Shown here: positions 57,937 through 63,430 of the stretch, one piece after another
How positions within the stretch are numbered: the stretch's first letter is position 1
Layout of the letters: every line of letters starts with the position of its first letter
From: Lentilitoribacter sp.
GTDB taxonomy: Bacteria; Pseudomonadota; Alphaproteobacteria; Rhizobiales; Rhizobiaceae
Assembly (NCBI GenBank): GCA_039974935.1
Contig: JBDWIC010000006.1
Span: 93,434 to 157,433, forward strand
Length of the DNA stretch: 64,000 bases
Reading direction: 5' to 3'
Made by a program: the position numbers and the translations under genes
The notes under the pieces: model-generated
Database searches by the model: none
What the model was told of the DNA's origin: nothing
The model's input: the letters and a program-made list of their open reading frames with translations, nothing else

Positions 57937-59295
57937 CTAGCGCTCAGAGAAAGATGAGCTGAAGGATTTTAAAACCGGCTTGAGCATGTAGCGCATAAGC
58001 GACTTCGACCCAGTTTTGATCTTAGCATCAACCACCATGCCAGCATGGAGATAACGCTTACTCTGATCTTCACCGATGAAGTTGTCTTTTAAATCAATCA
58101 CAGCCTTGTAATAAGGTTCGCCTTTTTCAGTTAAGAATGTGGTTGGCGATAGAACTGCAATCTTACCAGTTGCCGTACCAAAAATACTTGGATCGAAGGT
58201 AGATATATTTACCTCTGCATTGTCACCTTCTTTAATATGACCAATGTCATAAGGATCAACGCGAACCTCAGCAACAATTTGGCGTTCAGCAGGAACGACT
58301 CGCGCGATCAATTCTCCCGAACCGATAACTTCACCTTCAGCCTTTTGAACGACTTCCTGCACAATGCCATCGATAGGCGATTTGATAAATAATCTATCAG
58401 TGCGATCTTGTTGTTTGTTTAGTTGCTCGCGCGCTTGTGCGAGCTCAGATAAAACCTGTGCTTGTTCTTCACCAAGCAATTTCTTTTCCTGCGCCAATTT
58501 GCTTTCGATGACGCGACCAGCTTCTTCTAGCTGTAATTCAGCAACCTGCTGTTGGCCAAACGCGCTATCGATGCTCTGAGTAATTCGTTCTAAACTTGCT
58601 TTAGCGTCGAGATATTCTTTGCGCGAAACATGTCCGGCTTTCAAAAGGGATTGCAAACTATCGTGGCGTTCTTGCTCAATGGTCAACTGACGCTTTAAGC
58701 TTTTAACTTCACTTTCGTAAGCATTAGCTTCAAGTCTCTTCAATGCTTTGCCAGTTTCAAGATTGGCTAGCTCTTTTTGTAAAAGCGCAGCGCGAGCATA
58801 ATGCGCAATTTTCTCTTTTTCGTATAAATCGGGATATTGTTGTCCGATATTACCAAAGGCAGGTTCTTCTTCGTTAGCTAAAGCTTCCAATGATTTTAAA
58901 CGAAGCTCAAGAGATACGGCCTGAATTTCCACTTGCCCAAAATCTGCTTCGGTAGAAGTCGCATTGAGCAAAATAATTGTATCGCCTGCTTTAACACTCT
59001 GGCCCTCTTTGACTAGAACAGCATCGACGATGCCACCTTCGCGGTGTTCGATAGAGGTCACATTTGCAGTTGGTATGATTTCGCCGTTGGCAAGCACTAA
59101 TTCATCAATTGGGGCAAAAATGGCCCAGACGATTGCAGCAATAAACAACAAGCACAAAAGATTAGCCCGCCTGCCCATCACGATGATTGTTTTGTCATCA
59201 TCTAACTCGGCTGGCAGGATAAATGAGTTTCCAGAAACTTCACTTTTCCTAATCTGCACTTTTGTTCGATCCCACTTGATAAATGATGCACTCAT
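57937..59295 (-). CDS. HlyD-family type I secretion periplasmic adaptor
   Basis: N-terminal cytoplasmic tail plus single TM (LLCLLFIAAIVWAIFAPI), lipoyl-like halves, long coiled coil, C-terminal beta-barrel ending SLMRYMLKPV. Confidence 0.9.
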   Translation of the reverse strand: MSASFIKWDRTKVQIRKSEVSGNSFILPAELDDDKTIIVMGRRANLLCLLFIAAIVWAIFAPIDELVLANGEIIPTANVTSIEHREGGIVDAVLVKEGQSVKAGDTIILLNATSTEADFGQVEIQAVSLELRLKSLEALANEEEPAFGNIGQQYPDLYEKEKIAHYARAALLQKELANLETGKALKRLEANAYESEVKSLKRQLTIEQERHDSLQSLLKAGHVSRKEYLDAKASLERITQSIDSAFGQQQVAELQLEEAGRVIESKLAQEKKLLGEEQAQVLSELAQAREQLNKQQDRTDRLFIKSPIDGIVQEVVQKAEGEVIGSGELIARVVPAERQIVAEVRVDPYDIGHIKEGDNAEVNISTFDPSIFGTATGKIAVLSPTTFLTEKGEPYYKAVIDLKDNFIGEDQSKRYLHAGMVVDAKIKTGSKSLMRYMLKPVLKSFSSSFSER

Positions 59296-59401
59296 CGCAC
59301 CTAAACACTTTGTAGCTATTTGAGGAAATCAGTAGGTATTTCAATTAACCCCAAAAATCACATGCTACTTTTAGTATTTCTACCAGAAGTATCGTTAATA
59401 T

Positions 59402-61633: not shown

Positions 61634-61651
61634 AAATGACGAAGCCCCCCA

Positions 61652-63430
61652 TTAAGATGCAGATTGAGCAGATGGTTTATCCGCTTTTGGTTGAACAAAA
61701 TCATCTGGCAAAAGATGACCATCATGCATACGAAGCCTTTGGTCACAGATTTTCAAAAATGAAGGGCGGCTGGAAAAGTATACGGCAGTCATCTTGCCTT
61801 TGAGAGTTGAAAGTCCATCGGCAAGTAATTTGTCGGAACGCATATCCATATTGCTGTTTGCGCCATCAAAAATAAAGATTTTTGGTTGTTTTCTAATCGC
61901 GCGCGCAATTTTTATTCGCTGGAGAAAACCTGGAGATAAAATTGATGCAGAACCAATGCTCAACACCGTATCATAGCCATCTGGAAGTTTAAAAATATCT
62001 TGCTCGAGGCCGATGAGACGTGATGCTTCACGCGCGCTTTCAACTAAGTTTGCGCCGCCAAACATGGTGAGATTATCAATGATTGTGCCTTCAAAAATCT
62101 CAGTTTTAGCTGACACAAAACCAATCTCGCGATTAATGCCAAGTTCGTGCCATTGTTTAGACGAGAAACCATCAGCAAACACATTTCCATTTTCGGGTAA
62201 GAACTTCCCATTTAAGAAACTAACAAACTCAGTTCTTTCAGCGTTTTCTTGGCAGTGAATACCGATGAATTCACCAGGAGTTGCAGTTAAGTTGTATGGC
62301 TCGACGTCAGCGTTTTTGTCATTTGACGGTAGAACAAGATTTCGGATGCTAAAGGCACCTTTGGTCAAATTTTCGCGACTTTCGTCATGCTGTAAACCTT
62401 TGTTGGCAATTCGATCGAACACATTGCAACGTTTTCTGGCCAAGCGAATGTTCTGAATTTCATGAAATAGCGTCAATGCACGAGCAAACGGCTGAACCAT
62501 TCGCCCAGTTAAGAGCGAGCAGCATGCAAGCGCCGCTAAACTCATGTCACCGCCGATGACCCGAACAGCACCAAATGAAACTACGCAGATCATCATCATA
62601 TTTGAAAAGACGACGCCCTGTGTTTGCAGTTTGTTGGTACTGATAATAGCGTGATAACTTGAAACAGTTGATGTTTTTTGCAACATTTCAAATCGTCGGA
62701 GCAGCTGGCTTTCAACGGCCAAGTTCTTCACAGTTTGAATGTTTGAAAAAGTTTCCAAAAGGAAATCATTTTGGCGCGTATCCTGCTGAGAGCGATTATC
62801 AAGAAATGACTGAATTTCTTGCCCCTGTAGGAAACTAAATAGTCCAAAAGCGATAATAAGAACGATAGGTGCAAACACAAGCGTGCCGCCCACTAATGCC
62901 ACCATCGCTAAGAAGATAAACGCCATTGGAATGTCAATGAGGATTGTTCTGTTCTGACTACCCTGGAAATTGCTGTATTCCGCAATTGCATCAAGCCCGT
63001 CTAACCATTTAGATCGCGTAATTGTTGCGCGTTCACCTGGATTTGCGTTTAACAGCTGGTTCATTGCCAATTGCTGTGCGCGATGACCGTTTTTTAGCGC
63101 TGCCCAGCCAAGTATATAAGATCTTAAGCTACGTAATATTGTGTCAAGAATAACGGCTGCTAATAGTCCAGCAATCAACCAAAACAAAGTTGCTCCAGCT
63201 TGATTTGGTAATATCCGGTCATAAACTTGAAAGATCGCGAGTGGCATTGCTAAACCCAAAAGGTTTGCGATTAGCGAGATGACCAATACTTGTTTTGTTA
63301 AAGGTGTATCTGCTTCGGCCACGACTGGATTTTTGACTTTGTTATCAGCGCGCGCGTCTGCAATCACCGAGGATAATTCTTCGGTCTTGGCGGCTATTTT
63401 ATCTGCAATTTTGCGTGCCATGCGTATCAA
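61652..63430 (-). CDS. T1SS-type ABC half-transporter with pseudo-NBD (no Walker A)
   Basis: TMD motif FQVYDRILP. The NBD fold is recognisable, but the P-loop position reads GIHCQENAERT, Walker B is IFIFDG, and the H-loop is FSSRPS. The signature is LSPGF. The start may be the ATG at 63421. Confidence 0.85.
   Translation of the reverse strand: MIRMARKIADKIAAKTEELSSVIADARADNKVKNPVVAEADTPLTKQVLVISLIANLLGLAMPLAIFQVYDRILPNQAGATLFWLIAGLLAAVILDTILRSLRSYILGWAALKNGHRAQQLAMNQLLNANPGERATITRSKWLDGLDAIAEYSNFQGSQNRTILIDIPMAFIFLAMVALVGGTLVFAPIVLIIAFGLFSFLQGQEIQSFLDNRSQQDTRQNDFLLETFSNIQTVKNLAVESQLLRRFEMLQKTSTVSSYHAIISTNKLQTQGVVFSNMMMICVVSFGAVRVIGGDMSLAALACCSLLTGRMVQPFARALTLFHEIQNIRLARKRCNVFDRIANKGLQHDESRENLTKGAFSIRNLVLPSNDKNADVEPYNLTATPGEFIGIHCQENAERTEFVSFLNGKFLPENGNVFADGFSSKQWHELGINREIGFVSAKTEIFEGTIIDNLTMFGGANLVESAREASRLIGLEQDIFKLPDGYDTVLSIGSASILSPGFLQRIKIARAIRKQPKIFIFDGANSNMDMRSDKLLADGLSTLKGKMTAVYFSSRPSFLKICDQRLRMHDGHLLPDDFVQPKADKPSAQSAS

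Follow-up and report, generated by a model that had tools for sequence, protein, structure and literature searches.

Can a type I secretion system (T1SS) operate when neither of its two ATP-binding cassette (ABC) proteins retains a canonical catalytic site for ATP? This question is raised by an operon within a stretch of 64,000 nucleotides from Lentilitoribacter sp. (contig JBDWIC010000006.1, positions 93,434 to 157,433; hereafter the window), in which three co-directional genes on the minus strand encode two ABC half-transporters, termed ABC-B and ABC-A, and a HlyD-family membrane fusion protein (MFP), in the order B-A-MFP. The answer that we favour, and to which we assign a probability of about 50%, is that the operon encodes an obligate heterodimeric T1SS exporter for which the binding of ATP would act as a gate, in place of hydrolysis as the driving force, and which would serve a giant adhesin encoded next to it.

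Degenerate ATP sites in a type I secretion operon

ABC-A (59402-61633, minus strand, 743 aa) is a HlyB-like T1SS half-transporter with an N-terminal C39-like domain (CLD). ABC-B, a T1SS half-transporter composed of a transmembrane domain (TMD) and a nucleotide-binding domain (NBD), occupies 61652-63421 of the same strand if read from an ATG (589 aa), or extends to a TTG at 63430 (592 aa). Its orthologs open at the ATG (MARK...), three codons inside the open reading frame (ORF) that starts with TTG, and position 63421 is probably the true start, giving a protein of 589 aa. Both ABC proteins carry the Pfam domains ABC_membrane and ABC_tran, and their top NCBIfam matches were the LssB-type, HlyB-type, and PrtD-type families TIGR03375, TIGR01846, and TIGR01842, all under the curated cutoffs. 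E. coli HlyB (PDB 7sgr) was the nearest solved structure for each of them. The third gene (57937-59295, minus strand) encodes a T1SS periplasmic adaptor with the Pfam domain HlyD_3, which scored 308 bits against TIGR01843 (NCBIfam; cutoff 209 bits). A first-pass annotation of the window had read the operon as a T1SS with a HlyD adaptor; the T1SS families in NCBIfam, the top PDB match to HlyB, and the adaptor score above cutoff agree with both parts of that reading. The T1SS-type TM1 motifs FQVYDRILP and MMVYDKVIG were likewise confirmed in the ABC pair, and every motif of the annotation was present at its listed nucleotide coordinates.

The NBD of ABC-A holds the only intact P-loop of the pair, the Walker A motif GDSGAGKS (59993-60016), together with an intact Q-loop Gln. 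Its signature reads LTKSF (59687-59701) and is non-canonical, the catalytic Glu after Walker B is replaced by Asp (IYMFDD, 59624-59641), and the H-loop His by Gln (VTQRPS, 59522-59539; all on the minus strand). In ABC-B, the P-loop position is occupied by GIHCQENAERT (62231-62263), which forms a short strand-loop-helix in an AlphaFold2 (AF2) model, while the Q-loop Gln is replaced by Ala, the Glu of Walker B by Gly (IFIFDG, 61862-61879), and the H-loop His by Ser (FSSRPS, 61760-61777). The ABC-B signature LSPGF (61925-61939) keeps S2 and G4, with Phe in place of Q5; these four ABC-B elements also lie on the minus strand. A search with the expression GxxGxGK[ST] found no match anywhere in ABC-B, and the signature expression [LIVMF]S[GA]G[QE] matched neither ABC-A nor ABC-B.

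The motifs had originally been aligned by eye, and a profile alignment had been proposed as a check. We aligned ABC-B to E. coli HlyB (7sgr) using HMMER. The HlyB P-loop, GIVGRSGSGKST, was placed opposite GIHCQENAERTE in ABC-B; the signature LSGGQRQR opposite LSPGFLQR; Walker B, IFDEATSALD, opposite IFDGANSNMD; and the H-loop, AHRLS, opposite SSRPS. Family alignments computed by MAFFT together with canonical outgroups gave the same register. No canonical motif was displaced, so that the losses stand and a misalignment by eye was rejected on the basis of both alignments. An AF2 model of the ABC-B NBD, built from the family alignment, reached a predicted local distance difference test score (pLDDT) of 86 and a predicted template modelling score (pTM) of 0.82 and folds as an ABC NBD, with PrtD, the HlyB NBD, TmrAB, and TM287/288 as top Foldseek matches. 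As judged from this model, the degenerate domain is still a folded ABC NBD.

Co-occurrence and architecture suggest that ABC-A and ABC-B are obligate partners in a heterodimer. From the motifs, the sole nucleotide-capable site predicted for such a heterodimer is that in which the P-loop of ABC-A faces the LSPGF signature of ABC-B, in line with the composite site that the first-pass annotation had singled out as the only possible one. The second composite site is predicted to be unable to bind ATP because ABC-B lacks a P-loop, and the earlier description of this reciprocal site as degenerate on both faces was accurate. As the site on ABC-A carries Asp for the catalytic Glu and Gln for the H-loop His, it should bind ATP and hydrolyse it only very slowly. 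The annotation had recognised in these two substitutions the pattern of degenerate sites, and rightly so: TAP1/TAP2 (ABCB2/B3) is named in a FEBS review as pairing a Walker B Asp with an H-loop Gln (PMC7756269).

Purifying selection on the degenerate genes

The simplest explanation for lost catalytic motifs would be recent decay toward pseudogenes. The first-pass annotation had argued against simple decay from the length of the ORFs and had suggested a comparison of orthologs and of the ratio of nonsynonymous to synonymous substitution rates (dN/dS). ABC-B of the window is 96% identical to its ortholog in a Lentilitoribacter metagenome-assembled genome (MAG; protein P0008, locus L001), which has the same motifs. 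Codon-based dN/dS was calculated for this one pair, window versus Lentilitoribacter ortholog, at a dS of about 0.4-0.6. It amounted to 0.040 for ABC-B overall (0.028 for the NBD alone and 0.046 for the TMD), 0.015 for ABC-A, and 0.011 for the HlyD adaptor. Furthermore, the degenerate motif set is common to seven genomes at 70-97% identity, namely Rhizobiaceae MAGs and two Lentilitoribacter, and substitutions shared in this way are therefore beyond chance or sequencing error. With strong purifying selection and shared substitutions, the comparison sided with the annotation. Although the catalytic motifs are lost as decay would predict, pseudogenisation was rejected: the ORFs are intact, dN/dS does not exceed 0.04 in any of the three genes, and the same motifs recur in seven or more genomes, the most distant of them at 70% identity. 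We regard this explanation as refuted. Since its NBD is predicted to be folded and is under purifying selection, ABC-B appears to be retained for a function.

Signature loss across an alphaproteobacterial family

We scanned 185,579 species genomes with an ABC-B family profile and obtained 79 loci from the best 80 matches. Among these best matches, all 79 loci belong to marine and soil Alphaproteobacteria, with Rhizobiaceae, Lentilitoribacter, Roseibium, Labrenzia, Stappia, Parvibaculaceae, Hyphomicrobiaceae, and other Hyphomicrobiales represented. Gene B has gene A next to it in about 72 of the 79, and both composite sites were tabulated in these about 72 A/B pairs. A canonical LSGGQ signature was found in neither protein of any pair: S2 is often replaced by Pro, Ala, or Thr, and the fifth position is never Gln. 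The canonical T1SS outgroups (HlyB, P0089, and P0109) carry an LSGGQ-like signature. At two of the family loci (L069 and L078), the B-like proteins reach 1227 and 1313 aa and their motifs are unusual, possibly owing to fusion or misassembly.

The Walker sides vary more between lineages. In 37 pairs, neither site has a canonical Walker side (Lys, Glu, and His). On the tree, the Walker A Lys of ABC-B disappeared or changed on at least five independent occasions: it is wholly lost in the window clade, replaced by Arg in two clades, and by Cys, Met, and Gln once each. As an independent case, a clade of Roseibium and Labrenzia has no catalytic Glu in either NBD (DDPAG in Walker B of ABC-A, ILILNDAN in ABC-B; loci L046, L048, L055, L057, L060, L061, L065, L067, L073, and L084), and in addition shows Arg for the Walker A Lys of ABC-B and Tyr for the H-loop His of ABC-A. 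By its motifs, this clade is a second lineage without a canonical hydrolytic site. Non-canonical signatures are thus family-wide and not specific to the window, and catalytic losses are lineage-specific and occurred more than once. On sequence grounds, the window clade is the extreme of the family, with at most one predicted ATP site, and that one poorly hydrolytic. Taken together, the members resemble a T1SS heterodimer that became asymmetric long ago and is degenerate in its signatures, with repeated catalytic erosion that has gone furthest in the window clade. Repeated independent losses in genes that are still constrained form a pattern which suggests that selection does not maintain high ATP turnover.

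Could the missing ATPase activity come from another locus, whose product, a canonical ABC NBD protein, would act in trans by joining or replacing the NBD of ABC-B? Elsewhere in the genome there are several further ABC exporters, T1SS-like or MsbA-like, from which such a protein might come. However, no extra NBD gene was present at the family loci checked, and an unrelated partner would be unusual for a heterodimer of two TMD-fused ABC proteins. We consider this arrangement very unlikely.

A giant RTX/cadherin adhesin as the likely substrate

Divergently from ABC-B, on the plus strand, starts a gene for a giant adhesin with RTX and cadherin repeats (63693-64000), which runs off the window. Its ORF also runs off the end of the contig (position 164235) and comprises at least 2380 aa with 15 GGxGxD motifs and cadherin-like repeats; as the assembly breaks within this gene, these figures are lower bounds, and the C-terminal secretion signal would lie beyond the contig end. 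The counterpart in the Lentilitoribacter MAG, with an identical N-terminus and the same synteny, exceeds 4762 aa and contains Cadherin and HemolysinCabind domains. Within the family, a giant RTX gene very often diverges from the B-A-MFP operon. Because the giant adhesin gene is divergent from ABC-B, we assigned the T1SS to it: the operon is likely a dedicated T1SS for the adjacent giant Ca2+-binding RTX/cadherin surface adhesin.

The CLD of ABC-A spans residues 1-185 (61078-61633, minus strand) and was delineated with an AF2 model and Foldseek. Pfam gave no C39 match on these N-terminal 185 residues, even at relaxed E, and the identity of the domain therefore rests on the fold search, in which the model matched 3b79 and the HlyB CLD 3zua (both at E about 2-5e-5), as well as HlyB 7sgr. 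The C39-like domain proposed at this position by the first-pass annotation was thus recovered by fold, though missed by Pfam. Cys53 of the CLD is invariant across the family. The HlyB CLD lacks this Cys and has a Tyr at that position (PMC8277102). When the ABC-A CLD was aligned to proteolytic C39 domains, the match was too weak to map the catalytic His and Asp. Given the retained Cys, the CLD may be proteolytic; no double-glycine leader was found at the adhesin N-terminus.

The genome further encodes two LapG-like Peptidase_C93 proteases (contig C1, 549518-549991, and contig C8, 137589-138065), which by analogy hint at a LapA-type retention and release of the adhesin. The LapG cleavage motif TAAG was not seen in the available part of the adhesin N-terminus. 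Retention also underlies a different view of the operon, namely as a non-translocating platform or sensor that would, for example, hold the adhesin in its outer-membrane channel, as LapE retains LapA, while export takes place otherwise. The two proteases fit adhesin retention and release, and the window clade has no intact hydrolytic site, as would be expected of such a platform. However, there is no alternative exporter at the locus, CLD, TM1 motif, and HlyD adaptor form the architecture of an active T1SS, and purifying selection also extends to the TMDs (see the value for ABC-B above). A role restricted to retention therefore seems improbable to us, and we return to the exporter gated by ATP binding.

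A proposed binding-gated exporter and its alternatives

In the mechanism that we propose, the ABC-A/ABC-B heterodimer would be completed by the HlyD adaptor and by a TolC protein from another locus of the genome. No TolC-family gene was found in the window or the operon; the first-pass annotation had noted this absence for the window, yet three OEP/TolC genes lie elsewhere in the genome, and in one relative (locus L002) an OEP/TolC gene directly follows the MFP gene. ATP binding at the single site of ABC-A would close the NBDs and switch the TMDs outward, and this switch would in turn open the HlyD-TolC channel, or bring about its assembly, and engage the C-terminal secretion signal of the adhesin. 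Folding of the RTX and cadherin repeats with Ca2+ on the outside of the cell would then do most to draw out the chain, possibly assisted by the proton motive force, and the cycle would be reset when ATP is either released or, rarely, hydrolysed; a second energiser gene is not encoded in the operon. Such a machine would be an ATP-binding-gated channel more than an ATP-burning motor, and its low ATPase activity might be tolerable for a single, huge, and slowly made substrate. Both signatures are non-canonical in all of the about 72 pairs and catalytic residues of the Walker sides were lost independently in several lineages while the genes stayed under purifying selection, which suggests that ATPase power is only weakly needed. 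For the switch from inward to outward in the heterodimeric exporters TM287/288 and TmrAB, the binding of ATP can be sufficient (PMC8277102; see also PMC7205462), and RTX repeats fold upon Ca2+ binding during secretion (PMC8277102).

Several points weigh against this mechanism. The choice of a heterodimer over a homodimer of ABC-A rests on co-occurrence and architecture, the adhesin was assigned as substrate from synteny, and a binding-gated export powered by folding or by the proton motive force is inferred. The degenerate sites of TAP, TM287/288, and TmrAB still hydrolyse ATP slowly. The window pair may therefore keep enough ATPase activity at the site on ABC-A, with Asp in place of Glu slowing rather than abolishing catalysis. 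In about 15 pairs, e.g., from Parvibaculaceae, both Walker sides still have their Lys, Glu, and His, although their signatures are still non-canonical. The family overall thus does not appear clearly ATPase-dead from its motifs; the signature alone is non-canonical throughout. Finally, the transport of large cargo by a T1SS is usually held to depend on many ATP cycles run processively (PMC8277102).

These points lead to the closest competitor, a conventional ATP-driven T1SS with a tuned-down ATPase, in which useful hydrolysis at the ABC-A site would sustain the usual repeated cycles at a slower pace. The intact P-loop of ABC-A is consistent with it, as is the LSPGF signature with its retained S2 and G4; in degenerate sites, a Walker B Asp and an H-loop Gln slow hydrolysis rather than abolish it (PMC7756269); and the pairs with complete Walker sides may indicate that the ancestral state was a working ATPase. 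On the other hand, no site in the window clade combines a canonical signature with a canonical Walker side, a P-loop is absent from the second site, and the recurrent loss of catalytic residues speaks against selection for high turnover. We hold a slow motor of this kind to be possible, but less probable than the binding-gated exporter. Departing in the opposite direction, essentially no ATP would be hydrolysed in this Rhizobiaceae/Lentilitoribacter clade, and the pair would form an ATP-binding-gated or even nucleotide-independent conduit for a megadalton-scale adhesin, powered by vectorial folding of the adhesin with Ca2+ outside the cell and/or by the proton motive force; across the family, several lineages would be converging independently on such a mode. 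This stronger version of the proposal can be put forward only tentatively.

Export without hydrolysis, if it holds true, would mean that a T1SS can draw its power from the folding of its substrate or from the proton motive force, which would bear on models of RTX secretion and on the engineered secretion of large proteins. Whether ABC exporters hydrolyse ATP for each transport step or rely on ATP binding alone is a long-standing open question, in which work on TM287/288 and TmrAB favours a power stroke upon binding. The way in which cargoes of hundreds of kDa pass through a T1SS is a further matter of debate. The family described here allows a direct comparison within the same substrate class, between members with intact Walker sides (Parvibaculaceae) and members that have lost them (this Rhizobiaceae clade and Roseibium).

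Genomic neighbourhood

Directly downstream of the T1SS operon, on the same (minus) strand, we identified the urease structural genes (54916-57728). This region comprises ureA (57426-57728), ureB (57093-57398), an ORF for an LprI-like protein (56707-57096), and ureC (54916-56628), all on the minus strand. Lentilitoribacter shows a matching urease synteny right after the HlyD gene, with ureE, ureF, and a cobW-like ureG in addition. Three RNA-seq runs with matching species label (X21, X22, and X24) gave zero reads on window positions 54000-64000, which is not evidence of silence; DNA contig X1 matched identically.

Comparison with known systems

The lack of canonical signatures, a clade without a conventional hydrolytic site, and the repeated losses would surprise specialists in ABC transporters. 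In the full-text literature searched, we found no T1SS or ABC exporter family without a canonical signature in both NBDs and no description of a two-ABC adhesin T1SS from Alphaproteobacteria, although absence of this kind is weak evidence.

The system resembles HlyB/HlyD/TolC of E. coli, with HlyB as the nearest solved protein to ABC-A, a shared CLD fold, a HlyD adaptor, a putative RTX substrate, and candidate TolC genes elsewhere in the genome. Of the features that define a HlyB/HlyD-type T1SS, an ABC protein of the HlyB/PrtD/LssB families, a HlyD MFP, an RTX substrate, and a CLD were found, whereas canonical NBD motifs were absent. In HlyB, two identical subunits form the dimer and their NBDs are canonical (LSGGQ, catalytic Glu, and H-loop His); here, two ABC proteins occur and neither has a canonical signature. 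The two systems also differ in the CLD, which is devoid of Cys in HlyB (PMC8277102) and retains one in ABC-A.

Two ABC proteins are also found in the atypical T1SS of Vibrio MARTX toxins, in which RtxB, RtxD, and RtxE are all required, the giant RTX protein is encoded divergently, and TolC lies elsewhere (PMC3034196). By description, our operon shares with it the two ABC proteins plus an MFP, the divergent giant RTX gene (MARTX, about 450-500 kDa), and probably the distant TolC, but differs in gene order (rtxB-rtxD-rtxE versus B-A-MFP) and in its putative cargo, a cadherin/RTX adhesin instead of a MARTX toxin. With regard to the cargo, the Pseudomonas LapA/LapBCE system with LapD/LapG is similar, as it likewise exports a giant Ca2+-binding RTX adhesin by a T1SS and has a counterpart to the LapG-like Peptidase_C93 proteases in our genome; LapB, however, is a single homodimeric ABC protein with canonical motifs.

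In terms of the ABC pair, the system falls in with TM287/288, TmrAB, TAP1/TAP2, BmrCD, PatAB, and NBD1/NBD2 of CFTR, which all combine two distinct half-transporters or halves with asymmetric NBDs. The shared details include the Walker B Asp and the H-loop Gln of the TAP1 type in the ABC-A site and the non-canonical signature of the partner (PMC7756269). Those exporters, however, keep one consensus site with canonical signature, Glu, and His, whereas the window clade has none; since no member has a canonical signature, the feature of one consensus site is missing from the family as a whole. Altogether, the system is a variation of known kinds, and not a separate category.

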